From NCBI GenBank assembly GCA_036567745.1, contig DATCTW010000018.1, positions 194,665-258,664 on the forward strand: a stretch of 64,000 nucleotides of DNA, written 5' to 3'. This document shows, in pieces, positions 13,070 to 50,718 of this stretch (positions within the stretch are counted from its first letter, which is position 1; each line of letters opens with the position of its first letter). The notes under the pieces are model-generated. The model was given only the letters and a program-made list of their open reading frames with translations, searched no databases and had not been told where the DNA came from. The position numbers and the translations under genes were made by a program. Origin of the DNA: Ignavibacteria bacterium (GTDB taxonomy: Bacteria; Bacteroidota; Ignavibacteria; DATCTW01).

Positions 13070-13688
13070 AAAGCCCCCCTGAAACCTCTAGCCAGTCTGC
13101 AATATTTTCTACAGCTTTATTTATGTTATTATCAGAAATATCAATTGTAATTTTATTTAATTTACTCTTAGCTACCAAATTTGTCATTATTTCCTGTTCT
13201 TTCACAAAAAGATCGAGATCATCATATTGTTTTGGGTTACCTGATATTTTCAGTCTTTCTTTTCTAGCTTCAACAAATGATTCTTTACTCCGATAGCAAA
13301 AAACTAATCTGAAACCCAAATCACACAATTTACATTCCAACCAATCAAAATTATAATCTTTATTATATTTCATCTTTTGATACATCATTGTAGATAGATG
13401 AAACCTATCTACAATCCATGAATAATATTTTTGAAGTTCGAATAGTTTTGCCCACGTTGCGTAAGTTTCCATTGCAAGATTTTCTTCCTCTGGTAAAAAA
13501 TTTATTAATCCTCTTCCCCACGGAATATTTGTAAAAGCACACCATTCCGCAGAAATAAGGGGTGAATGATATCTATATTTTCTTGGACCTACAATTCTAG
13601 GATGTTCATTTAATGCGAATGCAATATCTGTCTTGAAAGTTAATCGAGTACCTTCAAGTATAATTTTTGGACATAATTTTTTACCCAT
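13059..13688 (-). CDS. Hypothetical protein, co-transcribed with photolyase (overlaps the phr start by 11 bp)
   Basis: The track ORF starts at TTG (13787), and its N-terminal extension runs into the first repeat element. The internal ATG at 13688 is preceded by a GGAG RBS and gives MGKKLCPKIILEGT.... I recognise no family. Confidence 0.45.
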   Translation of the reverse strand: MGKKLCPKIILEGTRLTFKTDIAFALNEHPRIVGPRKYRYHSPLISAEWCAFTNIPWGRGLINFLPEEENLAMETYATWAKLFELQKYYSWIVDRFHLSTMMYQKMKYNKDYNFDWLECKLCDLGFRLVFCYRSKESFVEARKERLKISGNPKQYDDLDLFVKEQEIMTNLVAKSKLNKITIDISDNNINKAVENIADWLEVSGGLYAK

Positions 13689-13787
13689 TATACCTGCTCC
13701 ATTTATTAGAATAAATAAAAATAAATATCCTTTAAAATAGCAATTCAGATTATTATACATATAATTTTTTATGGTCAAATTTCTCAA

Positions 13788-14910
13788 GATACGTGTCAGG
13801 GCTACGCCCCTAAAACATTATTCTACAATTTTATCTACAAACATTTCGGTGCTACGCACCTTTTATTTTTACAAAACGGGAATGATTCGTTTGTATGAGG
13901 GGCAGAGCCCCTATATGTTTGTAGAAATGCAAACGAAATAATATAAAGCACCATAGGTGCGACATGTCTACAAACATTTCTGTGCTACGCACCTTTTTTT
14001 ACGAAACGGGAATGATACGGTTTGTATTAGGGGCAGAGCCCCGATATGTTTGTAGAAATGTGAATGAAAATAAATATAGCACCGTAGGTGCGACATGTCT
14101 ACAAACATTTCTATGCTACGCACCTTTTATTTTTACGAAACGGGAATACATTAACAACATTCAATTATATTTAGGGGCAGAGCCTCGATATGTCTGTAGA
14201 AATGTAAACGAAAACGTATCAAGCACCGTAGGTGCGATACGTTTCAGGGCTACGCCCCTAAAAAATCATTCTTGCTATTTTTCTACAAACATCTCGGTGC
14301 TATCGCACCTTATATTTTTACAAAACGGGAATGATACGGTTTGTATTAAGGGCAGAGCCCCGATATGTTTGTAGAAATATGAATTAAAACATATAAAGCA
14401 CCGTAGGTGCGACACGTAAATAAACGTGTCAACCATCTTATCTACAAACATTTCGGTGCTATCGCACCTTATATTTTTACGAAACGTGAATGATTCGGTT
14501 GTATTAGGGGCAGAGCCCTGATATGTCTGTAGAAATGCAAACGAAAACAGATAAAGCACCGTAGGTGCGACACGTATCAGGGCTACGCCCCTAAAAAATC
14601 ATTCTTACCATTTTATCTACAAACATTTCGGTGCTATCGCACCTTTTTTATTTACAAAACGTGAATGATTCAGTTGTATTAGGGGCAGAGCCCCGATATG
14701 TTTGTAGAAATATGAATTAAAACATATAAAGCACCGTAGGTGCGACACGTAAATAAACGTGTCAACCATCTTATCTACAAACATCTCGGTGCTATCGCAC
14801 CTTTTTTATTTACAAAACGTGAATGATTCGGTTGTATTAGGGGCAGAGCCCCGATATGTTTGTAGAAATGTGAATGAAAACAGATAAAGCACCGTAGGTG
14901 CGACACGTAT
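13788..14910 (+). repeat. Tandem array (array 1) of about 7 copies of a hairpin-dense repeat of about 130 bp, with two kinds of short palindromic linkers
   Basis: Unit consensus: CTACAAACATTTCGGTGCTAYCGCACC-TTTTATTTTTACRAAACGKGAATGATWCGGTTTGTATTA-GGGGCAGAGCCCCGATATGTTTGTAG-AAATRTGAATKAAAACAKATAA-AGCACCGTAGGTGCGACAYGT. Each unit contains GC-rich 5-bp stems with 3-nt loops (GGTGC-TAC-GCACC, GGGGC-AGA-GCCCC, GCACC-GTA-GGTGC). A longer inverted repeat CTACAAACAT...ATGTTTGTAG frames the central hairpin. Linkers are 'TCAGGGCTACGCCCCTAAAAAATCATTCTT...' or 'AAATAAACGTGTCAACCATCTTAT', where GACACG-TAAATAAA-CGTGTC is itself a hairpin. Units 3-4 plus linkers are re-duplicated as units 5-6 plus linkers, giving a higher-order repeat of about 300 bp. 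Confidence 0.9.
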
Positions 14911-15007: not shown

Positions 15008-16234
15008 ATGCAATATTTTTCTCATAAAGTTGAATCTAGAAGAGATGAAAAGATAGATGCACTTATAGAAGAGTTTGGGGCAGAAGGTTATGCTGTATGG
15101 TTTGCTTTGCTTGAGGAGATATCACAGGAACAGAAGAACTTGTATATGTTATTTGTTTCAAGAAGATGGCTTGATACTTTCTCTATTTCCTTGAAAATGA
15201 GGAAATCTAAGGTAAGAAAAATATTAGATAGATTAGCAAACTTTGATATGATTGATTATGATTTGTATCAAGAAGGTATTATATTTTCACAAAAATTTAT
15301 TAAGATTCAACGAAGTTATATACAAAAAATATTCAAAAATGGAAATAATTCTGTAGAAAGTTGTATGGAAAGTGTAAAAAAGCTATTCAAAATAAAAAAA
15401 GGAAAATCAAATAAAACAATGACTTATGATGATTTTTTTCTGAAATTATGCAGAATTAGAGATGAAATAATCTATCCTATAAAGAAAAGAATAGAAAAGA
15501 ATAATAAAGAAATAGAAGATAATAATAATAATGCAAAATCTAATGAAAAAAAGGGAGATATTGAAACAAAAGAAACTACAGAAAAAGCGACAAAATATGA
15601 TAAAGGTAATAAACAAAAAATTTTGTTATTTCGGAAAAGTGATTGGCAATATTTAATATCAGAAAAGTTATACGAAGAAGTAAAGAAGCGAGATTCTACG
15701 TTTCCGAGTGTAAATTTACAGACATGGGCAAATACGTTTAACATGATATCGAAGGAGCGGAATATCGAAGAGATTGAAAAAGTTATGGAATACAGTCAAA
15801 AGCACCCGTTTTGGTCTGGAATAATAATCTCACCAAATGATTTATGGAATAATTTTGCAAAGATAAAACAAGCGATGATAAATAACACAGAGAAATCAAC
15901 ATATAGTTATGAAGAGATGCAACTTGCGATGATGAAGCAGAAAAGAAGCAAGAATGATTTTATTGCATGTATTGATGAAAAAGGTGAAATAATTTACTGG
16001 GATAAAAGTAAAGGTAACTGCCCATACAGGATATATGAACAGAAGGAAAATATCGAAGCAGTAATAGACAATGTGAAAGAAAATAAATCAATGGTGTGGA
16101 ATATTTCAAAACAAGGAATAAAATTACCTGAAGATTGGCACTATAGAGAGATAATACATGGTAAAAAGGAATATCAATACTCCGGTTTAAAAATAACCTT
16201 CGATTCCCCTTTTGCAGATGATAATCATATTTAA
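15008..16234 (+). CDS. DUF4373 (Lin1244/Lin1753-like N-terminal domain) protein; replication-initiator-like protein typical of phage and plasmid replication modules
   Basis: ATG start with a GGAGGGG RBS. The N-terminus 'MQYFSHKVESRRDEKIDALIEEFGAEGYAVWFALLEEI' matches the DUF4373 signature (YFSHD...D.KI..L....G..GYG.Y..LLE.I). There is a low-complexity K/E/N-rich central linker. Confidence 0.55.
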   Translation: MQYFSHKVESRRDEKIDALIEEFGAEGYAVWFALLEEISQEQKNLYMLFVSRRWLDTFSISLKMRKSKVRKILDRLANFDMIDYDLYQEGIIFSQKFIKIQRSYIQKIFKNGNNSVESCMESVKKLFKIKKGKSNKTMTYDDFFLKLCRIRDEIIYPIKKRIEKNNKEIEDNNNNAKSNEKKGDIETKETTEKATKYDKGNKQKILLFRKSDWQYLISEKLYEEVKKRDSTFPSVNLQTWANTFNMISKERNIEEIEKVMEYSQKHPFWSGIIISPNDLWNNFAKIKQAMINNTEKSTYSYEEMQLAMMKQKRSKNDFIACIDEKGEIIYWDKSKGNCPYRIYEQKENIEAVIDNVKENKSMVWNISKQGIKLPEDWHYREIIHGKKEYQYSGLKITFDSPFADDNHI

Positions 16235-30943: not shown

Positions 30944-32434
30944 TTATTCCTCCTTTAAATATTTTGTTATGTCATTTGGCGGGGTAGATTTTTGGGTCAA
31001 TAAAGATACTATTACCATTACAATTATTGGTAATATCATGCCAACAAACCCGGAAATATTTATATCAGTTATAAAACCCATCCATTCAGGTAAACTATTT
31101 TTGAACTTTTCCAAAACAAGAAAAAGCATTGGCATTAAAATTCCTGCCAATAGTGCTGAAAATGCACCTTTACTATTAGCTTTTTTCCAGTACAAACCAC
31201 CAGCCACTACTGCAAAAGCACCTGATGCGTACATAGTGCCCGTCAAAACAAGATATTGGTAAGCGGTAGCCGGTATTTCATATAAAAATCCAAAAACCAA
31301 AATAAATATACCAATCAAAAGTGAAAATATTTTAGCTACTTTTATAGATTGCTCCTCAGATAATGGAACTTTCCTTATCGGAGAAATAATATCTCTCGTA
31401 GCAACTGAGCTCCATGATAGCAAGTATGCAGAGTAAGTAGACATTGAAGCAGCCAGCATTCCTGCTAATACAATACCCAATACACCTGAAGGAACAACCG
31501 TACCAATCAATCTAGGCATACCTATAGTAGCTCCAACAGAAGGTCCAAAAAAAGCTAAAGCAGCTAGACCCCATAACATTGGCACCATAGATCTACCTGC
31601 AAGCGTTAACCCAAAAAACAAGAAAACTTTTCTTGCTACTTTTGGGCTTTCAGAACAAAAAGCTTTAGCAGCTATTGGTTGATGTAAACTTCCTGTTGCC
31701 AAATTCGCAATAATAGTCCAACCGATGAAAAACCATCCCATTTTAAGATTTTTTAATGGATTTATTCCTCCCTCACCATAATTCATATTAACAGCATTCG
31801 AGATGTCCAGAAAGCTTACTTTAGTAAGAATAATTATTGTTACAATCAACATACCAATTGATATTATAACAAATTGCATAAAATCAGTTATCACAACAGA
31901 AAGCATTCCACCAAGTATTGTATAAGATACAACAACTATTAACATTATAATCATAATATATATGAGTACATTTTGCCCTAAACCCATAGTTTCAGATAAA
32001 AATATTGCGTCAAATTTCAAGAATATACCCATATTCAAAACACCTGAAAGAAAAAGAACGATTCCTCCAAGAAGTCTTACATTTTTGTTATATTTAATTT
32101 CATAAAATTCTGGTATGGTCATTATTTTGAGCTTTCTCAATCCACTAACAATAAATCCGGTATACCCAATTATTATAAAACCTATCATATTAAGTATACC
32201 CATAAAAAAACTAGAGAAGCCCATTGTAAAACCAAATTCAGCCATATACATAAATGTTACAGTTCCAATTTCTGTAGCGACAAGAGTAGCAATACCTAAA
32301 GCTAATTTAACTTTTCTACCCGCAACAAAATATCCTTCTGAGTTTTCAATATATTTTTTTGCTCTTAACCCAAGATATACTGTTAAACCAAGATAAATAA
32401 TAATGATGAACGTATCAAAAATGGTATAATTCAT
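30944..32434 (-). CDS. Sodium:solute symporter (SSS) family transporter
   Basis: About 13 TM segments. 'EGYFVAGRKVKLALGIATLVATEIGTVTFMY' matches the N-terminal SSS signature (YFLAGR...G). Confidence 0.75.
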   Translation of the reverse strand: MNYTIFDTFIIIIYLGLTVYLGLRAKKYIENSEGYFVAGRKVKLALGIATLVATEIGTVTFMYMAEFGFTMGFSSFFMGILNMIGFIIIGYTGFIVSGLRKLKIMTIPEFYEIKYNKNVRLLGGIVLFLSGVLNMGIFLKFDAIFLSETMGLGQNVLIYIMIIMLIVVVSYTILGGMLSVVITDFMQFVIISIGMLIVTIIILTKVSFLDISNAVNMNYGEGGINPLKNLKMGWFFIGWTIIANLATGSLHQPIAAKAFCSESPKVARKVFLFFGLTLAGRSMVPMLWGLAALAFFGPSVGATIGMPRLIGTVVPSGVLGIVLAGMLAASMSTYSAYLLSWSSVATRDIISPIRKVPLSEEQSIKVAKIFSLLIGIFILVFGFLYEIPATAYQYLVLTGTMYASGAFAVVAGGLYWKKANSKGAFSALLAGILMPMLFLVLEKFKNSLPEWMGFITDINISGFVGMILPIIVMVIVSLLTQKSTPPNDITKYLKEE

Positions 32435-36468: not shown

Positions 36469-37680
36469 CTATTTAATTAACATCATCTTTTTGGAAATAG
36501 TAATATTATCAGATTTTAAAGAATAGAAATAAATACCACTTGAAACATTTACTCCATTCTCATCTTTTCCATTCCAGATAACCTTATGATTACCAGATTC
36601 TAGAGTTGTATTTAATAAGGTTTTAATCTTTTGACCTAGAGAATTATAAATCTCAATTTTTACATTTGATATTTTTGGCAAATCAAAAGAAATTGTTGTT
36701 GTTGGGTTGAAAGGGTTAGGATAGTTCTGAAGCAAATTAAACTTTTGCGGAATAGTTGAATAATTTTCATTTACACCTGTTACTTTTGATTTAATCCATC
36801 TTTGAACTAAACCACCATCATAACAGGTAACATAAACTGTATCACCAGTTAGGCTAAAAGCAACACCTCTTGGACTATAAATAACACTATCACCAAATCC
36901 TAATAAAGAATCCTTTTTACCTGTTGCTAAATTATAAATAAATAACTTATCAAAACCTCTACCACTCTGATATTCACTAATCCACAAGTTACCATTTTTA
37001 TCTAAATTTAAGCCGGGTGTATCACCTTCAAAATTATAAGGAAGACTATCTTTTAAAGTATAAGTTTTTAAATCATCACTATGGTAATGTTGAACAACAT
37101 GATGCCATAATGAACCAATATATACATCTTTTCCGTCTGGTGTAACTTCTACTGCTCTTGACCATACGCCTGTTTCTTTTTCTACAACACCAATTGAATC
37201 AAAGTTAGAATTTAAAATCCATAACGTTGCTGGACCAACCACTTTTGTTACATAAATTCTACCATTCTTATCTGCGGCAGGTTTAGTCAAAGAACCACCT
37301 AAGTTTTTATATTTCATACCTGAGCCATCTTTTGCATTAATTTTTATCAATTGACTACCAATACATACAAGAATATTACCATCACTATCAGTTGTCATAC
37401 CCCTGCAACCTTTAGCAACATTATACTTCTGACCACCAATACTTACTTCCCAAATAGGAGAAAAAGGCATCTTTTCTTTGTTTGGTTTGAATACTTTTAT
37501 TCCGACACTATCTCCATTGCTACCAATCCAAATATTCCCTGAAAAATCTGTTGTTATACCATGTGGTGAACCAATTGAATCAAAAACAGAATTAAAAGTA
37601 TAGGATTCCTTCTGAGCAAAAACGAAATTTGAAAAAAAAGCTAAAAGGATAATACTGATTGTAAAAATTTTGGTTTTCAT
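36469..37680 (-). CDS. Secreted NHL/SMP-30-like beta-propeller protein with a T9SS C-terminal sorting domain
   Basis: Signal peptide. Repeats 'SGNIWIG', 'DGNILV', 'NGRIYV', 'DGKDVYI', 'NGNLWIS' are present. The CTD reads 'LLQNYPNPFNPTTTISFDL...IYFYSLKSDN'. Confidence 0.7.
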   Translation of the reverse strand: MKTKIFTISIILLAFFSNFVFAQKESYTFNSVFDSIGSPHGITTDFSGNIWIGSNGDSVGIKVFKPNKEKMPFSPIWEVSIGGQKYNVAKGCRGMTTDSDGNILVCIGSQLIKINAKDGSGMKYKNLGGSLTKPAADKNGRIYVTKVVGPATLWILNSNFDSIGVVEKETGVWSRAVEVTPDGKDVYIGSLWHHVVQHYHSDDLKTYTLKDSLPYNFEGDTPGLNLDKNGNLWISEYQSGRGFDKLFIYNLATGKKDSLLGFGDSVIYSPRGVAFSLTGDTVYVTCYDGGLVQRWIKSKVTGVNENYSTIPQKFNLLQNYPNPFNPTTTISFDLPKISNVKIEIYNSLGQKIKTLLNTTLESGNHKVIWNGKDENGVNVSSGIYFYSLKSDNITISKKMMLIK

Positions 37681-37720
37681 TTTAAATTCTCCTTTAATTT
37701 TATTATGATTTAATTGTTAA

Positions 37721-38734
37721 CTAATAGCGAACTCCTATACTAAAAAAATGTACTGCACCAAAAATACCAAAATTCTCATAAGCATAGTCTACTTTTAAAT
37801 TTGTGTCAAATAAATTCTGATTAACACCAATTCCTGCCGTAAAACCTCTTTCATCTAAATTACTCATATATCCCGTTCTAACAGTAAATAAGTCCATAAA
37901 CTTATATTCCAAACCATACTTTATTTTTTCTTTAAAATCGCGAGGGTGTCTTGATTCAATAATGAATTTGAAAGAATGATCTTTTAGGTCAGGAATAAGA
38001 AAGGATATAGGATCAACTGTTAAGCCAAAACTTACAGCAAAAGGCATGGGGAATTTTTGATCTTCATATTTCAACTCTCTTGATACATTTTGCAAAGATG
38101 CACCAAACATAATACCATGGTAATTAAAATCATATAAAGCCCCAATATCTACAGCAAAATCACCAAGAGAATAATTTTTAGTTAACAACTGTAAAGAAGG
38201 ATCATTAAGAGATGTGCCAGAACCTACCCATACATCACCAAGATCCTGATAAACATATTTAACGTTTACACCATAAGAAAAATTACTACTAACCTTTTGA
38301 GAAAAAGCAAGACCGAGTGCTAATGCTTTTGGGGAAAATGTACCAGTCTCAATATAACCTGATTCATTATCGGCTCTTCTGGTACCATAAAAATCACCAT
38401 AATCCATCATTATCCCATTTATTGAAATAACACCAAAACCCCAAGCATCAAAAGCGAGGGAAGTCGAGAAGTAATTTATGTCGGCAATTCCTTTGGTATA
38501 ATTAAAGTTAACATCAACATTTGAATTCATCCAGCTAATACCTGCAGGATTCCAGAAAACGGCATTTGAATTTTGCATTGTAGCAACACCAGTAGCGCCT
38601 CTTCCAACTGCCTCAGCTGAAATTGGATTTTCTAAAAAACGAAAACCAGCTTGTGCTCTCTTTACTATCTGAGCATAAGAATAATTTGAAATAATAATTA
38701 AAAACAATAATAAAACATTTATTTCTTTTTTCAT
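37721..38734 (-). CDS. PorV/PorQ-family T9SS-associated outer-membrane beta-barrel protein
   Basis: Signal peptide, then 'AQAGFRFLENPISAEAVGRGATGVATMQNSNAVFWNPAGISWM', which resembles the PorV/PorQ/FadL-like N-terminal block. There are alternating beta-strand patterns, a C-terminal aromatic (…IGVRY) and an adjacent T9SS cargo gene. Confidence 0.5.
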   Translation of the reverse strand: MKKEINVLLLFLIIISNYSYAQIVKRAQAGFRFLENPISAEAVGRGATGVATMQNSNAVFWNPAGISWMNSNVDVNFNYTKGIADINYFSTSLAFDAWGFGVISINGIMMDYGDFYGTRRADNESGYIETGTFSPKALALGLAFSQKVSSNFSYGVNVKYVYQDLGDVWVGSGTSLNDPSLQLLTKNYSLGDFAVDIGALYDFNYHGIMFGASLQNVSRELKYEDQKFPMPFAVSFGLTVDPISFLIPDLKDHSFKFIIESRHPRDFKEKIKYGLEYKFMDLFTVRTGYMSNLDERGFTAGIGVNQNLFDTNLKVDYAYENFGIFGAVHFFSIGVRY

Positions 38735-38771
38735 GGTTACTCCATTAGAAATTATTTTTATAAAACCATTT

Positions 38772-40880
38772 TTAGCGAATGATTACAAACTTAACAAACT
38801 GATCAGCAATTTTTTCGCCATTTAATCCTTCTGCATCAGTTACAGCTAAGATATAAATGCCACTTGCTACATATTGATTGTCTTGTGTTCTCTGATCCCA
38901 CGCTTCATCCGCTTTACCAAAATGCTCTATGCTAGTAACAAAATCTCCTGTTTCAGTATAAATTTTAAGCTTACATTTTACAGGTAGATTTACAAATAGA
39001 ATTTTATCTGGTGTACCAGGGAATCCAAGAGGACCAGCTGCTACAGTAGCAGGATTAGGAACAACTCTTACCTTATCAGAGGTATTTAATCCAGGCTTAA
39101 ATGATGCAACAGGCATTTGAGTTCTATTTACATACCTTGAGCTTTCTAATTTTCTACCAGGGAATAAACCATTATTCTGAGTGCCATCATCAACTGCAGT
39201 AACAGCATAATAATAATTAACTCCTCTTATAACAGCGGTATCAATATAAGTTGTTTGTTCTCTATTTCTTGTTTCAAAAACTAATTCCCATTGTTCACCG
39301 CTATATTTATCTAAAGGATCATTCACATAAAATGCCCCTTTTTTTCTATATACTCGCCATGCGTACCAATCGTCAACACCTGTTACAGCATCTTTGAAAT
39401 AGCTTTTATCTGGATAAGACCATTTAACATAAATCCTATCTGGTCCGCTTTGAACGTTAATATCTGGTGGTGGTGGTGGTGAAGGTATCTTTTTCCCTTG
39501 CCTAATCATATTGTAAGCCCATAGAGCTCGATCCATTCTTTCTAAAAGAGAATCTTTCCCTGTCATAATAATATCATTTTTTTCTTTGTCAGTTATTCTA
39601 CCTTCAAACCATGCTTTTCCAACGCTATCAGCCAATTTCCATGAAATAGAACCAGCACCAATACCATAAACAAAAGTAATAGAATCGTATCGATTGTTTT
39701 TCTCATCTTTAGTTAATTTATAAGGTCCAACTGTAACAAATCTCATAGGTCCCTTTTCAGGTCTACCAGATACAACCCAACCTTGAGTAACGGGATCGAG
39801 TGGAAATCTTCCTCTTGAATCATTACCAATATAAGTATCACGTAAGCCAAAATCCCTTCTGCCCCATAAATCTTTTACAATACCTGCATGAGGTAAAGAA
39901 TATGGTTGATTAACATCATCTGTTAGATCCTGCGGTGATTTTGGAGCATAGAGCAAAGCATAACCCGGTATTTGAGTTGAAAAAAGATGACCTACAGTTT
40001 TATCAGGGTCTCCTTGATTATCCTGTGAGTTATTTTTATACTTTGGGAAACCCGGCATCCCTTTATTAAAGTAATCATAATAATAACATACTTTCAGATC
40101 TTTACGCAAACCTGAAGTATTATATTTTGATGTCCCTCCAATCCAACTATCTAAGTCGTCTTCACATTCATAACCATAATAGCCATAAACTTCTCTATTA
40201 CCTGCAAGAGATGGACCCATACTCATAGAAAATGGCCACCAGAATTCAATTGTTTGATCTGGGTACCTTTTTTGAGGATTTTCTCTCGGCAATTTAATTT
40301 CTCCGGTAAACTTTAAAGTTATTTCCCATATAGCAATATCAGATAATTCTGGATTACTAAAAGCATATACTCGAACACGGCTTCTTAATCCATAGATAGG
40401 TAAAAGATCTTCAAACTCCAGAATTTCATCTGCAATCAATTTTTCATTTACCTGCCATTTATATGGTGGGTTTAGCTTGTAGCCATCAACAGTAACATCA
40501 GGTGGCCTGTATCTTCTTTGTTCCCATGTATAATCAGTTGTAGCCTGGTTTGTGATATGAAAAAATTTTGTTCTCCTTATACCGCTTGTATCAACAATAC
40601 CAGAATCTGTTAAACAAAGTGGACTGAAAATCTGATAAAGCATATTTGATAGATAATGATCTTGAGGCCAAAAGAAGTCAAAATCATTTTGTGCAGTAGT
40701 TGTTGCAAAATTCCAGCTATATTGATTAGTAAGTCCACCTTCTCCTTTTGTTTTATTAAAATTCCATCTAATAGCATTAACATTTAATTGCATTGGTGTT
40801 GCGTTATAATCAGGTTGGGATAGTAATTGACCTGATAAAAATAACACAATAAATGCAAAAAGATACTTATTGAATTTCAT
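38772..40880 (-). CDS. Secreted protein of unknown function with an FN3-like domain and a divergent T9SS C-terminal domain; cargo encoded next to the GH18 chitinase
   Basis: The start was moved to the ATG at 40880 (GGAG RBS; signal peptide MKFNKYLFAFIVLFLSGQLLSQP), which removes the overlap with the chitinase gene. 'PPPPPDINVQSGPDRIYVKWSYPD...YYYAVTAVDDG' is FN3-like. The C-terminus 'KLKIYTETGDFVTSI...WDQRTQDNQYVASGIYILAV...KFVIIR' matches the T9SS CTD pattern. Confidence 0.6.
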   Translation of the reverse strand: MKFNKYLFAFIVLFLSGQLLSQPDYNATPMQLNVNAIRWNFNKTKGEGGLTNQYSWNFATTTAQNDFDFFWPQDHYLSNMLYQIFSPLCLTDSGIVDTSGIRRTKFFHITNQATTDYTWEQRRYRPPDVTVDGYKLNPPYKWQVNEKLIADEILEFEDLLPIYGLRSRVRVYAFSNPELSDIAIWEITLKFTGEIKLPRENPQKRYPDQTIEFWWPFSMSMGPSLAGNREVYGYYGYECEDDLDSWIGGTSKYNTSGLRKDLKVCYYYDYFNKGMPGFPKYKNNSQDNQGDPDKTVGHLFSTQIPGYALLYAPKSPQDLTDDVNQPYSLPHAGIVKDLWGRRDFGLRDTYIGNDSRGRFPLDPVTQGWVVSGRPEKGPMRFVTVGPYKLTKDEKNNRYDSITFVYGIGAGSISWKLADSVGKAWFEGRITDKEKNDIIMTGKDSLLERMDRALWAYNMIRQGKKIPSPPPPPDINVQSGPDRIYVKWSYPDKSYFKDAVTGVDDWYAWRVYRKKGAFYVNDPLDKYSGEQWELVFETRNREQTTYIDTAVIRGVNYYYAVTAVDDGTQNNGLFPGRKLESSRYVNRTQMPVASFKPGLNTSDKVRVVPNPATVAAGPLGFPGTPDKILFVNLPVKCKLKIYTETGDFVTSIEHFGKADEAWDQRTQDNQYVASGIYILAVTDAEGLNGEKIADQFVKFVIIR

Positions 40881-40893
40881 ATAATTCTCCTCG

Positions 40894-42237
40894 TTATTTG
40901 AGATACAACATTTTTCTCGTAAAAATATTTCCATTAACATTTAATGAATAATAGTATATACCTGAACTAATTTTTTTTGGTTCATAGGTTATTTTATAAG
41001 ATCCTTTCCTCATCATATCATTTATTATCACATCAATTTCTCTTCCCATCAGATCGAATACAGATAACTTAACTTTAAATATATCCCTGCTATCCTGAAG
41101 CGTAAATGAAATGTGAGTTTGAGAATTGAAAGGATTAGGATAATTTTGTTGTAATATAAATTCTTCAGGCTTTATCACTTCATTAATTCCGGATACATTT
41201 TTCAGCAAATTATTTCCTACAGTTTCGAGTAAAGGTTGAGTGCTACCAACTTTATCCTGACCAATAGCCCAAATAATTAATCCACCGATATTATTTTTCT
41301 TGATATACTCGCATTTATATTTAACAGATAAAGTATCATCATAAGATAAAACCTGAGTGTTATTGGGTTCAGTCAAATATGGAACAAACGAAACAGAATC
41401 CCAATTATATTTCCATCCAGAACTTAACCTTGGAACAATATTAGTATATGTAATTTGAGATGCGGCTGTACTTGCTCCATACAATGATTTTGAAGTAAAT
41501 AACCAACCATAAAAGCCTACACCTATACACAACTTATCATATGGTATACCTTTTGCAATATAGTATTTAAAACTTTGTTCTACTGATCCATCTGCATCAT
41601 TTTTAGGTGTGTAAAGGGGTGAATTATGTCCAGAATGATTAGTCCAGCTACCATGAAAATCATAAGTCATGATTCCAATCCAATCAAGGATATTTTTTAC
41701 TTCATTCCAATCATAACCATTATTCCAATCAGTACTGGGTGCAGCAATGCTTAATGTCATTGAAGGGTTCAATTTCAGTAGTTCACCTTTTAACTCTTTC
41801 ATCAATAATGTGAGGTTATTCCTATCATTACTTTTAGGATATTCCCAATCCAGATCAACACCATCATATCCATAAACTTTGCACATCTCAACAACGTCAT
41901 TAATAAACTTTCTCCTTTTTGCAGTATCAGAAACAACTGGAGAAAATCCATTTGACTGCCCCCAGCCACCTATACCTAAAATTACTTTTACATTTTTTTG
42001 ATGTGCAGCACTTATCAAAGCAGGAAATTCAAATCCATAAGGAACAACTAATTCACTTCCATCATCAGTTGGGTAAACAAAAGCATGTATTATGTGAGTT
42101 AAATATTCATACTTTACTTGATTGGCAGGGAAAGAAGCTTTATTCCACGAAGGATAATATCCAATCACTTTTCTAGATTGAGCAAATATATTTAACGAAA
42201 TAAATATTAAGACAAAAGTTATAATCTTTTTTAACAT
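40894..42237 (-). CDS. Chitinase, glycoside hydrolase family 18, with a T9SS C-terminal sorting domain
   Basis: GH18 catalytic motif 'DGVDLDWEYP', plus 'LGIGGW'. The CTD reads 'LQQNYPNPFNSQTHISF...IYYYSLNVNG'. Confidence 0.85.
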   Translation of the reverse strand: MLKKIITFVLIFISLNIFAQSRKVIGYYPSWNKASFPANQVKYEYLTHIIHAFVYPTDDGSELVVPYGFEFPALISAAHQKNVKVILGIGGWGQSNGFSPVVSDTAKRRKFINDVVEMCKVYGYDGVDLDWEYPKSNDRNNLTLLMKELKGELLKLNPSMTLSIAAPSTDWNNGYDWNEVKNILDWIGIMTYDFHGSWTNHSGHNSPLYTPKNDADGSVEQSFKYYIAKGIPYDKLCIGVGFYGWLFTSKSLYGASTAASQITYTNIVPRLSSGWKYNWDSVSFVPYLTEPNNTQVLSYDDTLSVKYKCEYIKKNNIGGLIIWAIGQDKVGSTQPLLETVGNNLLKNVSGINEVIKPEEFILQQNYPNPFNSQTHISFTLQDSRDIFKVKLSVFDLMGREIDVIINDMMRKGSYKITYEPKKISSGIYYYSLNVNGNIFTRKMLYLK

Positions 42238-42253
42238 TTCTTTAGTCCAGATA

Positions 42254-45200
42254 TTACAAATCTATTCTTACACCTAATAACACTCTTCTTGGATTCAAGA
42301 AAAGAGGAGCCTGCCACCAACCGATATCAATATGAGATTTATCCCATTCACCCCATTTATCATCACCTTTTTTATCTCCTTCATTAAATGGTAGTTTTAA
42401 AGATGATTTGTAATTATCCAGCTGATTTCTAGTCATATTTCCAACTTCAAGCCTTTTTTGATTTAATAAATTTTGAACAGTTAAAACTACCTCTACATTA
42501 TAACCAGTAAACTTGAACAACTTTGAAGCTCTCATATCGAGATTAGAATAATCCACTATATCTAACCATTGTTGTTTTTTGATATCAGATTCTTGAGGAT
42601 TCCATAACATCTCTCCTCCATCCTGCCATTTGAAAAGGAAATTGACATAAATATCACCTAAAATATTCATATCAAAAAGTTTTGGACCCCAATCTGAAGG
42701 AGTTCTTAGATTTACATTTATATGAGCTCTGGGTAATGGTATTGTAGTAGTTAAATTAGCAGATCTTCTTTCATCAGATGCTTCAAGTTTATTTTCATAT
42801 ATTTTCTGTAAACCACTCTGGCCATAACTCTGTAACATATAATCATAGTTTGCCCAAAATGTAATCCATTTTCCAAAAGTTCTTTCAAATCTTAACTCTA
42901 CACCTCTTACATCTTTATATTTATCAGGAACGTAAGTTGTTACAATATTATCATGATAATAATTTATATAACTCTGACTGAGTGGTTGGTTACGAAAATC
43001 TTTATAATAGAATGCAACGTTAAATAGAAAGTTTTCTAAAAATTGCTGTTCATAACCAAATTCATAAGAAACAGTCCTTCCCATGCTTAAATTTGGATTA
43101 GGCAAAGTAACGGCTGAAGGATATACATTTAAATTATATAAAAATGATACAGGTGCTCTTTGATAAAAATGACCATAATTAAAATAAAGTTTACTTTCAG
43201 TAGTAATTGGGAAAGAGACTGACAATCTTGGTGAAATTTGCGCCTGAAGCTTATTCTTTTCACGAGGCCAGTTTGGTGGGTTTTCGAGCATATCTTTGTA
43301 AATTTGCCACCTTTCATAAGAGCCCCATCCACCAGGCAAATTCATATAAACCTTATTATAAAAATCAGAATAACTTTGATCAGGTGGATTAGTTACAATA
43401 AATCCCTTTTTATTTGGATCAAAAATATCAAGCCTAACACCAGCATTTGCTATCATTCCTTCAAATTCAATTTTATCTTGTAAGTATGCACCTAATTCAA
43501 TAGGTGTTACTTTATAATATTGCCAGGTATCTGTTGTCCACATTCTTTCTGATTGCAACCATGTACCACCATAAGTATATAGATAAGTGAGTTTGGCTGA
43601 GATACCTGCTTCAAATTGATTATGTTCACCAAGCTGAGAAGTAAAATCACTACTCAATTGTACTGTCCATGAATATGAGGAGTCGTCTCTTTGGGTTCCC
43701 CCATATAACCAGAACATGTTTAACTCATCTGTTGCCCAATTAGTTGAAGCGTTAGGAGTGCCACCATTAGGAACATTTAAGAATCTATAACCACCAATTG
43801 TAATCCATGCATCAGGTTTTGTTGTATCTAAAGAAAATGGTCTTAACTCATGATCTGTATAACCAAAATGTAAATTCACAGTGTAAAAAGAACTTGCTGA
43901 AAGAGTATGTGTAAACTTCACACCTCCAATTATATATCTCTGATCATAATATTGCAATCTACTCTTATTGAACATTCGATAGAAATTATCGCTACCAATA
44001 AGTGCAGCTTGTCTTTTTACTGAGGGTTCTGAATTACTTATAAAATTAAAACTTGATGATGGATCAACTAAAGTACCACCGTAATTAGTAGCGCTACCTT
44101 CATTAAGAGATGATATCTTTGCATACATACCATCGACAGATAATCTCATATTCGGAGAAAGAACACTGGTTAGCTTTAATTGAGTATTCCAATCTATATA
44201 ACTATCTCTTGGACCAACTGGAAAAGCAAATTGTGAATTCTCATACTTAAACCCTAAAAGAAAAGTAGTATTCCTAAAATATTCACCAAGTAATGGTAAT
44301 TCACCCCCTGGCAATGGACCACTAAGAGATGTTTCTATATAAATATCGGGTTTTTTCCCATAAGAATATTGGGGATGTCGCAATTTCCATAATTGTAATT
44401 TTTGTTCTGGTGTAAGTTTTGCATCTTTTGGTAAATCAGGATAGTTACCTGTTGAGGGATCGTTCCAACCCTTAAATCCCCAAAACTCTGGAGGTACAGC
44501 CAAACTATCCTCTTTAGTCTTAATACCATTCATTGCATATTTTCCTGCAAACACCTGATAAATTGGCGATTCATTACTATATGGATCTGTTCCAAAAAAT
44601 TTCTTTTTTGCAGTTGGTGTAATATCAACTTTTAGAGCAAAGTTATATTTATCTCTATTTCCTTCTTTTGTAACAACATTCAACAAACCCGATTGTATAC
44701 CACCATACTTAGCTTGAAAGCCACCTGTTAGAACTTGTAATTCCTGTATGGTTGTTGAGTTAAGAGATAAATATGAATTTTCACTTCTAGGATCTTGAAG
44801 AGAAATACCTTCAATACGAATGTCTGTTTCACGAATAGCGCCACCTCTAACACTAAGTCCATGCCCTTCGTTATTATCAACTAATTCAATACCCTTCAAA
44901 TTTCCGACAAATTCATCGACTCTAACAATAGGCACTTCAGCAATACGAGCTGTTTGGATAACTTCTTGTGTTGAGGCAACATCTGGTTTAATTACTTCTC
45001 TCTCATAAGTAACAACAATTGCATCCATTTGAACAGATGATGGAGTTAACTTAATATTAAGAGTAATGGTTCTGTCTGCATCAACTTGCACTTTTGCTTT
45101 AGTGTAAGTAGAATAGCCCACCATACTTGCCTTAACATTATAAAATCCTGGTGGCACATTAAGAATCGCAAAATATCCGTTTTCATTTGTAACAGCACCC

Positions 45201-45400
45201 AACTTTGGATTTTGAGCGTAAGGGTGTCCAGAAACCCAAACTGTATCAATCATTACGGTTACACCAATAAGTGGTTCATTTGTTTGGGAATCAGTTACTC
45301 TTCCGGAAATTTTGCCATTCCCAGAGTAAAGCAATTCAGGAAATAATAATGAAATAAAGGAAAGTAATAACAGGCAATAAAAGAAGTAAAACTTCTTCAT
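42254..45400 (-). CDS. TonB-dependent outer-membrane receptor (SusC/RagA-like) with an N-terminal carboxypeptidase-regulatory-like domain
   Basis: The track start is TTG (45412), and the ATG at 45400 is preceded by GGAGG. The CarbopepD_reg block reads 'GKISGRVTDSQTNEPLIGVTVMI...GYFAILNVPPGFYNVKASMVGYS'. A plug-like region ('LSVRGGAIRETDIRIEGISLQDP') is followed by a long beta-barrel. Confidence 0.7.
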   Translation of the reverse strand: MKKFYFFYCLLLLSFISLLFPELLYSGNGKISGRVTDSQTNEPLIGVTVMIDTVWVSGHPYAQNPKLGAVTNENGYFAILNVPPGFYNVKASMVGYSTYTKAKVQVDADRTITLNIKLTPSSVQMDAIVVTYEREVIKPDVASTQEVIQTARIAEVPIVRVDEFVGNLKGIELVDNNEGHGLSVRGGAIRETDIRIEGISLQDPRSENSYLSLNSTTIQELQVLTGGFQAKYGGIQSGLLNVVTKEGNRDKYNFALKVDITPTAKKKFFGTDPYSNESPIYQVFAGKYAMNGIKTKEDSLAVPPEFWGFKGWNDPSTGNYPDLPKDAKLTPEQKLQLWKLRHPQYSYGKKPDIYIETSLSGPLPGGELPLLGEYFRNTTFLLGFKYENSQFAFPVGPRDSYIDWNTQLKLTSVLSPNMRLSVDGMYAKISSLNEGSATNYGGTLVDPSSSFNFISNSEPSVKRQAALIGSDNFYRMFNKSRLQYYDQRYIIGGVKFTHTLSASSFYTVNLHFGYTDHELRPFSLDTTKPDAWITIGGYRFLNVPNGGTPNASTNWATDELNMFWLYGGTQRDDSSYSWTVQLSSDFTSQLGEHNQFEAGISAKLTYLYTYGGTWLQSERMWTTDTWQYYKVTPIELGAYLQDKIEFEGMIANAGVRLDIFDPNKKGFIVTNPPDQSYSDFYNKVYMNLPGGWGSYERWQIYKDMLENPPNWPREKNKLQAQISPRLSVSFPITTESKLYFNYGHFYQRAPVSFLYNLNVYPSAVTLPNPNLSMGRTVSYEFGYEQQFLENFLFNVAFYYKDFRNQPLSQSYINYYHDNIVTTYVPDKYKDVRGVELRFERTFGKWITFWANYDYMLQSYGQSGLQKIYENKLEASDERRSANLTTTIPLPRAHINVNLRTPSDWGPKLFDMNILGDIYVNFLFKWQDGGEMLWNPQESDIKKQQWLDIVDYSNLDMRASKLFKFTGYNVEVVLTVQNLLNQKRLEVGNMTRNQLDNYKSSLKLPFNEGDKKGDDKWGEWDKSHIDIGWWQAPLFLNPRRVLLGVRIDL

Positions 45401-45733
45401 AAAAACCTCCAATAAATGACCAAATATTCAAAATTATTTTTTCTGAAGAGAAAGAGGACTGCGAAAAAGAGGTTTTTCCTTTGCCTTAATAAAAAACCGG
45501 TATTGTATTTCTTGACGGCTTTGGATCGCGAACACCGCACATCCTTTTTCCCTAAAGGGAAGCATATTTGCTAGAAAGTATGAAGTATGGAATACCCATC
45601 ACTCATGCTTCCGTTGTGAAGGTAATAAAAAAAAATTCTTTTGTCAAGTAAAAAAACAAATTTTTTTATTTATAATTTTTTTAGAATTTTTCCGATTGCT
45701 TTATTTACATGGTACCCGGAAGAATTAATTATT

Positions 45734-46243
45734 CAAACATATCGGGGCTCTGCCCCTCACAATAATTAAAACATCTAGTTTTGTAAATACGAAAAGGTGC
45801 GTAGCACCAAAATGTATATTAACATGTCGCACCTACGGTGCTTGATATTTTTATTGTGTCATTTTCTACAAACATATCGGGGCTCTGCCCCTTACTATAA
45901 TTGAAACATCTTGTTTTGTAAATACGAAAAGGTGCGTAGCACCGAAATGTTTGTAGAATTATGATTAGATAAATGTTTAAGGGGCGTAGCCCTGATATGT
46001 ATATTAACATGTCGCACCTACGGTGCTTTAAATTTTTATTGTGTTGTTTTCTACAAACGTATCGGGGCTCTGCCCCTAAGGTATATGAAATGGCCTCGAT
46101 ACATTTGCATTACATTTATAATACCAAACAAAAAGGTGCGTAGCACCGAAATGTTTGTAGAATTATGATTAGATAAATGTTTAAGGGGCGTAGCCCTGGT
46201 ATGTATATTAAAGTTTTTCTACAAACGTATCGGGGCTCTGCCG
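45734..46243 (-). repeat. Tandem array (array 2) of about 4 copies of the same structured repeat family as array 1, in inverted orientation
   Basis: It contains the reverse complements of the array-1 motifs: ATATCGGGGCTCTGCCCC (= GGGGCAGAGCCCCGATAT), GGTGCGTAGCACCGAAATGTTTGTAG and ACATGTCGCACCTACGGTGCTT. The central segment differs from array 1 (TAGATGTTTTAATTATTGTGA in place of GGGAATGATACGGTTTGTATTA), so the two arrays are diverged sub-families. Confidence 0.85.
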
Positions 46244-46293
46244 TTAAATGTAATTGAACGGTAAGAAAGTAGCTGAAACAACCACTTATTATT

Positions 46294-49200
46294 TTATTCA
46301 CAACGTTTATTTAAAATATTATATACTACTTCAGATACTTTTGATAAATCAAGAGGTTTATCTAAAATATGGGAAAAACCAACAGAATATATATTTTTAT
46401 CCTGATAGTAACCAGACATTGCAACAATAGGAATATCTTTACATATTTTTTTGACCTCTGTGCACAGTTCTATTCCTGTCATTTCTGGCATAGTAATATC
46501 AGTAATAATTAAATCAAATTTTTCATCTGTAATTAATTTTAAAGCATCTAGACCGTTTTGAGCATTTTTTACTATATAATTTAAATCATCCAGATACTCT
46601 GTTAGCATAAATCTTATGCCCTCATCATCTTCAACAATTAGTATTTTCTGATTATTGCCAATAAATAATTCTCTTCTATCTTCATCTAAACTTTTATCTG
46701 AAGAATCTATAACAATAGGAAAATATATTTTGAATTCTGTGCCTTTACCTAATTCTGTATATAAATTAATAAATGCATCATTTTTATTAATATTATTTAA
46801 CACAATAGATAAACCAAGCCCTGTTCCTTTTCCTATTTCTTTAGTTGTAAAGAAAGGATCAAAAATTTTATCAATTATTTCAAGAGGAATTCCGCTTCCA
46901 CTATCCTTAATAACTAAAAGAGCATATTTACCGGGTTTCATAATTCCATTTTTTGTAATAACATCATAGGAAATATTTATTTCATCAGTTCTTATTTCAA
47001 TACTGCCTTTATTTTGAATGGCATCTCTTGAATTAATCACAAGATTCATTATTACCTGCTCAATTTGTGCAATATCAGCATTAATAATCAACTTTTTATG
47101 GTAAATATTTCTCTCTAATATAATATTTTCGGGAATAAGCCTTATCAACATTTTCCACAAATCATCAACAATTAAATTAAGGTCTATAATTTGTTTTACA
47201 ACCTGTTGCTTTTTACTGAAAGCTAAAATTTGTAGAATTATATTTTTCGCTTTTGAATTTGCCCCAACCAGAGCCTCAATGTATCTTTTATTATTTGTTT
47301 TACAATTCGAACATAATTTTCTTTCCAACAATTCAGTATTACCAATTAATACAGTTAATATATTATTTAAATCATGAGCTATGCCACCAGCTAATTGACC
47401 TACAACTGACATCTTTTCAGATTGAATAATTTGCTTTTCTAATTTTTTCCTTTCTGTAACATCCCTAATAAATCCTCCAACTCCAAATTTATTATCAATT
47501 AATTTTATTTTAAATTTTCTTACCTCAAATACTCTATCTCCAAAAGTTTCTTCAGTAATTACTACCCCATCACTTTCGACAGCTAGTTTATCACTATTAT
47601 AACATTGGTTTGCTTCTATTTCGGACATAAGTTCAAAATCATTTTTACCAATAATATCATCATAATTTCTGTTATATAAATCAACACCAGCATTATTAAT
47701 ATAAAGGTACCTAAAATCAGAATCTTTAAGAAGAACAATATCATTAGTTGAATTTAAAAATTCTCTGAATTGTCTTTCGCTTTCTTTTAAAGCCTTTTCT
47801 ACCTTTATTCTATATGTTACATCGTGAATAATTGAAAATAGATATTCTTTATCCTTAATAAAAATTGGTCCACTATAAACCTCAACATCTCTTAACTCAC
47901 TGTTAGAAAGCCTATGAGTAAAAAGTAAAAATCTCTTTTCTTTATTTTTGACAGCTAGCATTTCTTTTTTTATTACATCCTCAGTGGAAGCATTAATCTG
48001 ATAAATCTTCATTTTTTTCAATTCTTCTCTTGAATAACCATAAAAGGTACAAGCTGAAGGATTAGCATCTAAAATATCTCCGCTATCAGGATTAATCAAA
48101 AGCATAACTGAATAGTTGTTTTCAAAAATACTTCGATATCTTTCTTCACTTTCTTTTAAAGCACTCTCTGCAAATTTCTTTTCTGTAATATCTTCATAAG
48201 TACCAAGCACTCCGATTATTTTCCCTTCACTATCTTTTAATGGCACTTTACTTGTTCTTAGAAACCTTTTAGTACCATCAAAAATAATATGCTCTTCTTC
48301 ATAATTCAATTTTGGTGTATCATTCCCTATAACAAATTTATCATCTTCGATGAACATTTTAGCTACTTCTGGAATAACCGAATCATAATCACTTTTTCCA
48401 ATAATTTGCTCAGGGTCCTCAAATTTATAATCCTTAGCAAAATTTTTATTACATCCCAAATAGATAGAATTTCTATCTTTCCAAAATACTCTTACAGGTA
48501 TTGTATCTAATACCAATCTTAACATATTTTTCGATTCAAGTAATTCCATTTCAATTTTCTTTCTTTCAGTAATATCTCTTCCCACACCAATTATGCTGAT
48601 AACATTATTATGTTTATCTAATACAGCTTTATCTGCCCACCCAATCCATCTCCAGCCATCTTTTGTTAAAGCTCTTTGTTCAATATAACAAGAGTATGGA
48701 GGTTTATATAAATTTTTCATTTCCTCCAAAGTAAGTGCTAAATCATCAGGATGAACTAAAGGCATAAAAGTATTTCCTAAGAGCTCTTCTTCCTTTTTCC
48801 CAAACAATTGACAGTATGATGGACTTACAAATTCAAACTTTCCATTTGTATCAACTTTTACTAAAAGGTCTGTTTGATTATTTACAAGTAATCTGTATTT
48901 TTCCTCACTTTGTCTAAGTAATTCTTCAGCTTTATTTTTTTCTTGAATAAATCTTGCCTGTTGTACATTTTGTATAGCAAGTAAAGATAATTGCTTTGCT
49001 ATAAGGTGAAGAGCTTTACAGATCTTTTCAAATTGTTCTCGAGGCATTCGCGTAACTTTTTTTAGTTCTTCTCTAAACTTTTCTTTATCAGCACCAATAA
49101 CATCAGCATAATTTAATATAGTTTTTTCATCTATATTTTCATCTACTATTTGACCAATCAACCAATTAGCAATGTGATTATTTCCTACCATTATACTAGT

Positions 49201-50718
49201 TCCACCATCTAACAATCCACCACTAAGGCATGGTTGCATTTTATAACCATGAGGATTTATTTTACCAAGTTCTGCATCAGATTTATAGCAATTTTCTCTA
49301 CCTTTTTCAGTACCTCTAATAATATTTTCACAAAGATAAGAAAAATTACTTGGTTTTGTAATAGGTTTACCATCAGGATATGTTATAATTGATGCAACAC
49401 CAGTTGCAAAAGCAAAAGCATCCTGAATTTTCTGAATTTCCTCGATATCAAATATATCTTCAAATCTTATATCACCAATATCTGAAACAGGTTTAGTAAG
49501 TGCTACTAAACGATTTGCTAATTGTTCATTTAACCTTTTTATTTCATTTTCTGCTTTTTTCTTTTCGGTTATATCACGTACAATTGCATGAATATATTTT
49601 TTACCTTTCAGCTCAAAACAATTTAAGCTTACTTCAGTATCAAATAATGTTCCATCTCCACTTTTATGTTTCCATTCAAAATGTTGAGGAACGCCAGCTA
49701 TCGCCATTTCAACTAATTCTTTTCCTTTTTCAGCTGATTTTCTCCCATCTTCCTGGTATTCAGGTGAAAAAGTAAATGGATTAGAACCAATCATTTTTTC
49801 TTTTGAAGTTCTAAAAATTTTTGTAGCTGCTGTATTACAATCAACAAACACAATATCATCCATTATTAAAATTCCATCATCAGCAGATTCAAACAAAATT
49901 CTAAATTTTTCTTCGTTTTCCCTTAAAGAATTTTCTAATTCAATATGTTGAGTAACGTCATTTGCAACAGCATAAATTTTATCATTAATTGGATAAGAGT
50001 TCCACTCTATCCATTTATATGTACCATTTTTACATCTATATCTATTTAGAAATTCCAAGACTATTTCCTGATTTTTCAAATTTTCTAAAGCTTTTAAAGT
50101 TGAAGGGAGATCATCTGGATGAACAAAATCCAAAAATACAGCACCATCTAACTCTTCTTTTGAATAACCAAGAACCTGTTCCCATAAAGGATTTACTCTG
50201 ATAAAACTGCCAGAAGTATCTGCAATACACAATAACTGTAAAGAGACATTAAAAAATCTTTCAAATTCTTCAGTCTTTTTTTCTAAATCCTTTAAATTTT
50301 TTTTCTCTTCGGTAATATCAATATTTATACCATAAGCTACAGGTTTTTCCAAAACTTTATTTAAGGGTGAAAACAAAGTACGATAATATTTTACTTCGCC
50401 ATTTTTAACAACAGAATTTTCAAAGGATAGAAACTCTCCTGACAAAGCCTTTTTGTTTGTTTGTTCCCATTCTTCTGCCATTAATTTATCATCTAAAAAA
50501 TCTTTGGGTGATTCCCCTATATGATAACCCCAATTTTTAATTGAATATGAGTTCTGTAATATATATTTACCCTCTGAATCTAATGCCCAAATCTCAAATG
50601 GAATTTTATCGAGTATAGCTTTATAAAAAATTTCTTTTTCCTGATATTCTTTAACAACTTTTTTTAAATTAGAAATTTCTTCTAAAAGCTCGTTATTGGA
50701 ACTTTTATTTTTATCCAT
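46294..50718 (-). CDS. Hybrid sensor histidine kinase/response regulator with multiple PAS/PAC domains (1474 aa)
   Basis: ATG start. At least 6 PAS-like modules are present. HisKA reads '[21 protein letters not shown]'. HATPase reads '[10 protein letters not shown]...DSGSGIP...GTGLGLS'. The C-terminal REC reads '[14 protein letters not shown]...[17 protein letters not shown]'. Confidence 0.9.

Follow-up and report, generated by a model that had tools for sequence, protein, structure and literature searches.

The BIMEs of enterobacteria are arrays of REP sequences. They form extragenic mosaics of palindromes that belong to several subtypes, alternate in orientation and are joined by conserved linkers, and these mosaics vary in tandem number and are dispersed at many intergenic sites. 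BIMEs are known to bind IHF, gyrase or Pol I. A second group of described hairpins comprises the subterminal hairpins of the IS200/IS605 elements and the PATEs, which are taken here to resemble the modules described below in that a small hairpin is combined with a conserved sequence offset from it by about 10 nt on one side. A hairpin with an offset conserved sequence is the geometry by which the IS608-type TnpA finds its cleavage site. The third group is formed by the REP and REPIN sequences that are linked to a RAYT (TnpA-REP, HUH/Y1). These have hairpin stems with compensatory changes and a conserved flank containing GTAG, they occur as inverted doublets able to fold into longer hairpins, and they are chromosomal and vertically persistent. 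In the definition of a REP, a GTAG or GTGG tetranucleotide is separated from the base of the stem by 0-2 nt (PMC6006769; PMC3733652), and repeats tagged with GTAG have been reported outside the Bacteroidetes only (PMC3733652).

The repeats considered here lie in 64,000 nucleotides of DNA from an Ignavibacteria bacterium, referred to below as the window, in which they form two arrays. With good confidence, each of these arrays is a site at which a dispersed family of palindromic, non-coding repeats of the REP/BIME type has expanded locally in tandem; the family is situated in intergenic regions of an uncultured low-G+C lineage of the FCB group. The family is dispersed, non-coding and made of hairpins, and its arrays are locally homogenised and hypervariable.

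The likeness to BIMEs extends to the extragenic mosaic of palindromes, the presence of several subtypes in alternating orientation, the conserved linkers, the variable tandem number and the dispersal over many intergenic sites. The module order [D-] A- B+ C+ recurs at other loci, the linkers are conserved within arrays, and array 2 holds from about 1 to about 13 units in different strains. The differences from BIMEs are the host, which belongs here to the FCB group, the 5-bp stems, which are much shorter, the four module types in a period, and a conserved tail of 14 nt instead of a tetranucleotide next to the stem. From the IS200/IS605 ends and the PATEs, the modules differ in being arranged as inverted pairs and long tandem arrays, with neither tnpA nor tnpB nearby and no defined left or right ends.

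With the RAYT-linked REP and REPIN sequences, the modules share a short, imperfect palindrome with compensatory variation (here a 5-bp stem with a loop of 3-4 nt), the conserved flank with its GTAG, and the inverted doublets that can fold into longer hairpins. They are likewise chromosomal and vertically persistent, and arrays occupy the same intergenic sites in related strains. In contrast to those REPs, no RAYT was found beside any of the copies examined, and the GTAG of the A and B modules is 9 nt 3′ of the stem, against 0-2 nt (PMC6006769; PMC3733652), while the tails of the C and D modules have no GTAG. The REP tables for the Bacteroidetes RAYT subclasses 2.4 and 2.6 do not contain the motif, and the REPs of these subclasses have stems of 8-13 bp and other sequences (PMC6006769, Table S1). 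Since the distance of GTAG from the stem departs from the published definition of a REP (PMC3733652; PMC6006769), the modules are read here as a REP/BIME-like family of atypical design and not as a member of a named REP family.

Anatomy of the two arrays

Up to four hairpin modules, termed A to D, make up the mosaic of each repeat period of 131-185 nt; they alternate in orientation and keep a fixed order (Table 1). On the + strand of array 1 this order reads [D-] A- B+ C+, repeated along the array, and array 2 is the same string read backwards. The periods reported by TRF for array 1 are 131, 158 and 333 nt. Each module consists of A/T-rich bases (AAA, TAA or TTA), a 5-bp stem of G+C, a loop of 3 nt (4 nt in some A copies) and a conserved tail. 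This tail has the form GAnAYGT and carries the extension TTGTAGA in the A and B types only. The B and D modules are stem variants of one another, as are the A and C modules.

Table 1. Arrays, modules and flanking genes, with positions in the window
Feature	Position	Strand	Description
Array 1	13786-14910	+	7 repeat periods of 131-175 nt; from TRF, module map and unit alignment
Array 2	45727-46258	-	4 B modules, reverse complement of array 1 modules; periods of 135, 185 and 168 nt
A module			Hairpin GGTGC-GTA-GCACC; tail GAAATGTTTGTAGA
B module			Hairpin GGGGC-AGA-GCCCC; tail GATATGTTTGTAGA
C module			Hairpin GCACC-GTA-GGTGC; tail GACACGT
D module			Hairpin AGGGGC-GTA-GCCCT; tail GATACGT
A module, example	13834-13860	-	GGTGC-GTA-GCACC, then GAAATGTTTGTAGA; form kept in other Bacteroidota
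B module, example	14030-14056	+	GGGGC-AGA-GCCCC, then GATATGTTTGTAGA
C+/D- inner pair	14556-14591	+	GCACC-GTA-GGTGC facing AGGGC-TAC-GCCCC; short tails GACACGTATC in common
Left flank of array 1	13059-13688	-	Deoxynucleoside/thymidylate-kinase-like gene; true product about 209 aa, not the 242-aa ORF
Right flank of array 1	15008-16234	+	DUF4373 (Lin1244_N) gene; outside the repeat system
Left flank of array 2	42254-45412	-	SusC-like TonB-dependent receptor, head of the chitin/T9SS cluster
Right flank of array 2	46294-50718	-	PAS/PocR hybrid histidine kinase

The sequence-only reading of the window had placed a second, inverted array of the same repeats at 45734-46243, and the module map bears this out with slightly wider limits (Table 1). 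When up to 3 mismatches are allowed, the 27-nt B module GGGGCAGAGCCCCGATATGTTTGTAGA occurs seven times in array 1, always on the + strand, and four times in array 2, always on the - strand, and the number expected from shuffled sequences is 0. The A module is found three times on the - strand of array 1 and twice on the + strand of array 2. As stated there, the second array separates the hybrid kinase, whose stop is at 46294, from the SusC-like receptor, which starts at 45412; the distance between the arrays, given as about 31 kb, measures 30.8 kb. The estimate of about 4 units agrees with the four B modules, two of which are imperfect copies at the ends: the copy on the promoter side (45730-45756) lacks the end of its tail and the copy on the kinase side (46218-46244) has 3 mismatches. 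The central segment that had been described as diverged corresponds to the second half of the A-B spacer, which differs between the arrays. By unit alignment, identity is 79-96% among the units of array 1, and 61-82% when units of one array are compared with those of the other.

Between the two arrays there are 24 inverted pairs, with arms of 36-117 nt and a complementarity of 70-91%. A covariance model of the module, run with its filters off, has all 25 of its matches in the 64-kb window inside the two arrays, and the same holds for all 20 of the perfect G+C-rich 5-3-5 hairpins in the window. Exact inverted matches between the arrays number 29 and extend over 18-31 bp. The longest of these, at 31 bp, is made up of just the conserved modules, and its context is about 75% identical.

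The pairing of the stems was counted in instances that were anchored on the tail alone, without selection for pairing. All five stem pairs are present in 142 of these 194 instances, and most of the others are variants with a 4-nt loop. The stems are preserved by compensatory changes, with GGGGC/GCCCC, GGTGC/GCACC, GGCGC/GCGCC and GCAGT/ACTGC among the variants. A second pair count agrees, and as it was taken from an alignment pre-selected for pairing it is not independent of the first. Neighbouring modules face each other, and as a result the predicted folds of single strands of the arrays are much more stable than those of shuffled sequences (z-scores of -5.4 to -8.8).

An ORF of 136 aa in array 1 (13964-14374) was considered and rejected as spurious, as it reads through repeat units and has no Pfam match. 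It could be annotated by gene callers and is almost certainly no gene. The ORF of 242 aa to the left of the same array (13059-13787, with a TTG start) is too long; its homologues, which number in the thousands, have a length of about 209 aa, placing the start near 13688. The kinase-like protein encoded there is unusually conserved, with 72-84% identity among the best 120 matches listed, and several of the listed matches are labelled as other phyla (Chloroflexota, Anaerolineae). The interval that separates array 2 from the SusC-like start contains, at 45614-45691, an A/T-rich tandem duplication of 25 nt (TTGTCAAGGTAATAAAAAAAAATTCTT, 2.1 copies) and an 11-nt repeat, which may be part of the promoter region of this gene.

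Dispersal, copy number and breadth of the family

A search with an exact 26-mer gave 0 matches in 185,579 species genomes, a collection to which the source genome does not belong. A 20-mer of the B module was found in 24 contigs from activated-sludge and digester metagenomes. Low GC (25-39%) is a feature of 21 of these 24 contigs, whose arrays have the same A/B/C/D order. Five contigs represent the two loci of the window or lie close by (L011, L012, L020 and L023, and later L040-L046). The flanks in the other contigs are unrelated and include Sua5, CobD, NUDIX, a Big_5 surface protein, a FadL-like protein and a heptosyltransferase. The contigs come from several related strains and, with orthologous loci counted once, provide at least 15 further distinct intergenic loci. 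Relative to genes, arrays are found upstream, downstream and in the gaps of both convergent and divergent pairs, and they run in either orientation. In several cases two or three arrays share a contig, with direct pairs on L009, L019, L022 and L025 and, on L021, an inverted pair around one gene. A repeat-associated gene was suspected at the array edges and was rejected, as the Sua5 and Big_5 cases are the same housekeeping loci from different strains.

The sequence-only reading had offered three interpretations of the paired arrays. The plainest of them, that the repeat family simply prefers long intergenic regions, is the one that is supported, since arrays stand at 15 or more further loci, in either orientation and whatever the type of intergenic context; of the other two, which are taken up in the next section, the inversion is not supported and the integrated element is refuted. 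Neither the pairing of arrays nor their orientation relative to genes carries meaning.

The number of units at the site of array 2 differs widely between close relatives of the window, which itself has 3.5. There are about 13 units over 2.5 kb in L045 (14470-17000; 98-99% identical to the window), at least 6 in L011 (1850-2920; 92.5% identical) and about 1 in L040 (6745-6890; 98% identical), where the low count may reflect collapse in a short-read assembly. The array at the Sua5 locus is also variable among three contigs. These differences between strains, together with the higher identity within than between arrays, indicate that the arrays expand and contract locally. Time and again, contigs in short-read assemblies of the lineage terminate within arrays.

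The arrays would grow and shrink by slippage or by unequal exchange between direct repeats. New loci may be seeded by a putative trans-acting enzyme that would act on the single-stranded hairpin plus its tail, and which could be akin to the HUH/Y1 (RAYT-type) transposases that act on REPs. As the GTAG lies 9 nt from the stem and not at its foot, recognition of the RAYT type is an analogy here and not a demonstrated fit. A regular-expression screen of the ORFs in the window and in 44 related loci found no HUH/Y1 motif in any of them.

The degenerate pattern GGNGCNNNGCNCCGANAYGTNTGTAGA matches 6 sites in the 185,579 species genomes, all of them in Bacteroidota, with a Saprospiraceae MAG, a Lewinellaceae MAG and Dyadobacter contributing two each. 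The motif is arranged at these sites in palindromic units of four hairpins, except in Dyadobacter sp. 3J3, which instead has a tandem array that repeats about every 56 nt. The core motif of this array (L007, 3291-3697) is AAAGGTGCnnnGCACCGAAATnTTTGTAGA, and the array is located just 3′ of a canonical terminator consisting of a hairpin and a T-run, between convergent genes. Viral contigs, plasmids and phages hold no match to the modules. Rfam 15 gives 0 matches in the window at the gathering score and one tRNA only in the related loci; below the threshold there are only long hairpins of the plant miRNA type. A literature search did not find the module sequences, and they correspond to none of the REPs given in two surveys (PMC3733652; PMC6006769).

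The repeat family appears to be undescribed and is unusually dynamic. A broader proposal, put forward tentatively and at somewhat less than even chances, is that the hairpin with GAAAYGTYTGTAGA defines an undescribed superfamily that spans the Ignavibacteria-like lineage, Saprospiraceae, Lewinellaceae and Dyadobacter. Such a superfamily would be maintained by a putative single-strand-specific enzyme, and its recognition geometry, with the conserved GTAG 9 nt from a 5-bp stem, would be unlike that of known RAYT-REP pairs. In the lineage of the window the family has expanded into arrays whose length changes about 13-fold between strains that are 92-99% identical.

Rival readings of the arrays and of the block between them

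The most plausible of the rival readings, although an improbable one, is that the arrays are functional cis elements or small-RNA genes, such as a terminator or insulator behind the kinase or a set of promoter units. It is compatible with the account of the arrays as local expansions of a dispersed family. Read on the opposite strand, the A module is a G+C hairpin followed by a T-run, but a stem of 5 bp would make a weak intrinsic terminator. Taken together with the TTTG that precedes it, each B module (e.g., at 14013-14056) reads TTTG-N20-TATGTTTG, which resembles the -33/-7 promoter consensus of Bacteroidetes. In the window, the B modules of both arrays are directed at the start of the adjacent gene (DUF4373 and SusC-like), whereas at other loci B points toward a gene start in about 6 cases and toward the 3′ end of a gene in about 4-5. 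The promoter idea was dropped as the main explanation on account of this mixed orientation of arrays relative to genes elsewhere. The conservation of the motif across orders would fit a function in cis; against such a function stand the roughly 13-fold variation in copy number at one locus among strains that are 92-99% identical and the lack of any Rfam match.

A very unlikely reading, and the one to which the sequence-only reading gave most room, is that the 31-kb block is flipped by homologous recombination of one array with its inverted counterpart, which would make the population polymorphic for the inversion. The arrays are truly inverted relative to each other, with the 29 exact inverted matches described above, and they are locally recombinogenic in that copy number differs between strains. 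However, an exact identity of 31 bp at most, between units that are 61-82% identical, makes a poor substrate for RecA.

The polarity of the block also argues against its inversion. The raw GC-skew profile mainly followed the coding strand, and the skew at third codon positions (GC3) was therefore taken gene by gene. By this measure the - strand is G-rich regardless of the orientation of the genes. The flanks average -0.17 for + strand genes and +0.29 for - strand genes; within the block, ordinary + strand genes range from -0.04 to -0.18 and - strand genes average +0.23. A recently inverted block would be expected to show the opposite sign, but block and flanks share one leading-strand polarity. 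The strand bias of the genes, with 20 of 24 on the G-rich strand, matches the flanks as well.

Contigs from three relatives span array 2 (L011, 92.5% identical to the window; L040, 98%; L045, 98-99%), and all three have the order kinase, array, SusC. MAGs in which copies of the kinase are at least 90% identical bear the label Ignavibacteria or Bacteroidota. Contigs with the kinase-like gene carry units of the array 1 type in the same orientation as in the window. No inverted junction occurs among the 24 metagenome contigs. The three spanning contigs and an outgroup contig, which is collinear with the window across both array sites, thus present a single orientation, and there is no recombinase gene and no exact match above 31 bp. 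In view of this short longest match, the unchanged GC3 polarity and the arrangement in the outgroup and the relatives, the proposed inversion of the block through the arrays is not supported. A rare inverted isomer may occur in a subpopulation, but nothing observed here points to one. The inverted orientation of the two arrays is incidental, and the arrays define no unit; the block that they enclose is an ordinary part of the core chromosome and keeps its ancestral orientation.

The outgroup is represented by one 230-kb JGI contig, which was read as two loci in the same orientation and whose orthologues have 62-90% amino-acid identity. A comparison of synteny over the 15-45 kb block had been suggested as a check and was run with this contig, and the outgroup is collinear through both array sites. 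Its orthologues map monotonically onto the window from 50718 to 8380, across both array positions. The order begins with the hybrid kinase, DUF5009, F5/8-type C, PIG-L, GNAT and WD40 genes, continues with M14 peptidase, ApaG, URO-D, DMT, SDR and GT4, and ends with the kinase-like gene, photolyase, serine dehydratase and a beta-helix protein. There are no copies of the module in about 66 kb of the outgroup. In place of the sodium:solute symporter gene (496 aa, 30944-32434 in the window) the outgroup has an ORF of 146 aa that is 81% identical to the N-terminus (L038, 17790-18230), and this copy may be a truncated gene or a pseudogene.

The arrays stand where the gene content of the window departs from that of the outgroup. 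The cluster at 36469-45412, which consists of the SusC-like gene, a GH18 gene with a T9SS tail, a 722-aa gene, a PorV- or FadL-like gene and a gene for a protein with a T9SS tail, is absent from the outgroup, where the hybrid kinase is followed by a spacer of 320 nt and the DUF5009 gene. At the site syntenic with the DUF4373 gene, the outgroup has four unrelated genes. Both arrays are thus at breakpoints of gene content, and these two cases are treated as an association with long or variable intergenic regions and not as evidence of mechanism. The DUF4373 gene has a GC3 skew of +0.45, against -0.04 to -0.25 for every other + strand gene, and 7 homologues among 5.8 billion proteins, all on contigs of less than 3.4 kb. 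It looks like a single gene that was recently acquired or recently flipped.

That an ancient integrated element carried the 15-45 kb block and left the arrays as its degraded ends, as had also been proposed, is scarcely credible. This reading could draw on the DUF4373 gene at one edge, which is phage- or plasmid-replication-like and anomalous in GC3 skew, and on the position of both arrays where gene content departs from the outgroup. Against it, eight genes at 26-36 kb (DUF5009, F5/8-type C, a transporter, PIG-L, GNAT, a 432-aa gene, a 137-aa ORF and WD40) and six at 16-21.7 kb (M14 peptidase through GT4) have collinear orthologues in the outgroup, which are contiguous there with the orthologues of both flanks. 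The block holds housekeeping genes and genes for the catabolism of amino sugars or chitin, and its GC3 skew is like that of the flanks. It contains no integrase, recombinase or transposase, nor is there one among the genes of the whole window, in which no tRNA was found either. Arrays of this kind are also present at 15 or more unrelated loci, and their modules are without matches in viral contigs, plasmids and phages. The synteny of the flanking genes with the outgroup, the housekeeping content and the lack of mobility genes refute the integrated element.

The weakest proposal, that array 1 is an iteron-type origin or a binding array for the replication-like DUF4373 protein, has next to no chance of being correct: array 1 does adjoin the Lin1244_N-domain gene, both in the window and among relatives of 90-99% identity, but array 2 and at least 15 other arrays have no DUF4373-type gene nearby, a distribution that contradicts it, and the modules, being hairpins that alternate in orientation, differ from direct iterons.

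Significance of the arrays and of the repeat family

The inverted arrays mark no invertible or mobile unit of 31 kb, and there are therefore no grounds for expecting the chitin/T9SS locus to be expressed in a phase-variable manner. As local tandem expansions of a dispersed REP/BIME-type family, the arrays are hypervariable markers for strain typing, and the family accounts for the breaking of short-read assemblies of this lineage at the same places. The occurrence of the core motif across distant FCB lineages, with no known partner enzyme, offers a starting point for tracing how REP-like sequences spread outside the Proteobacteria.
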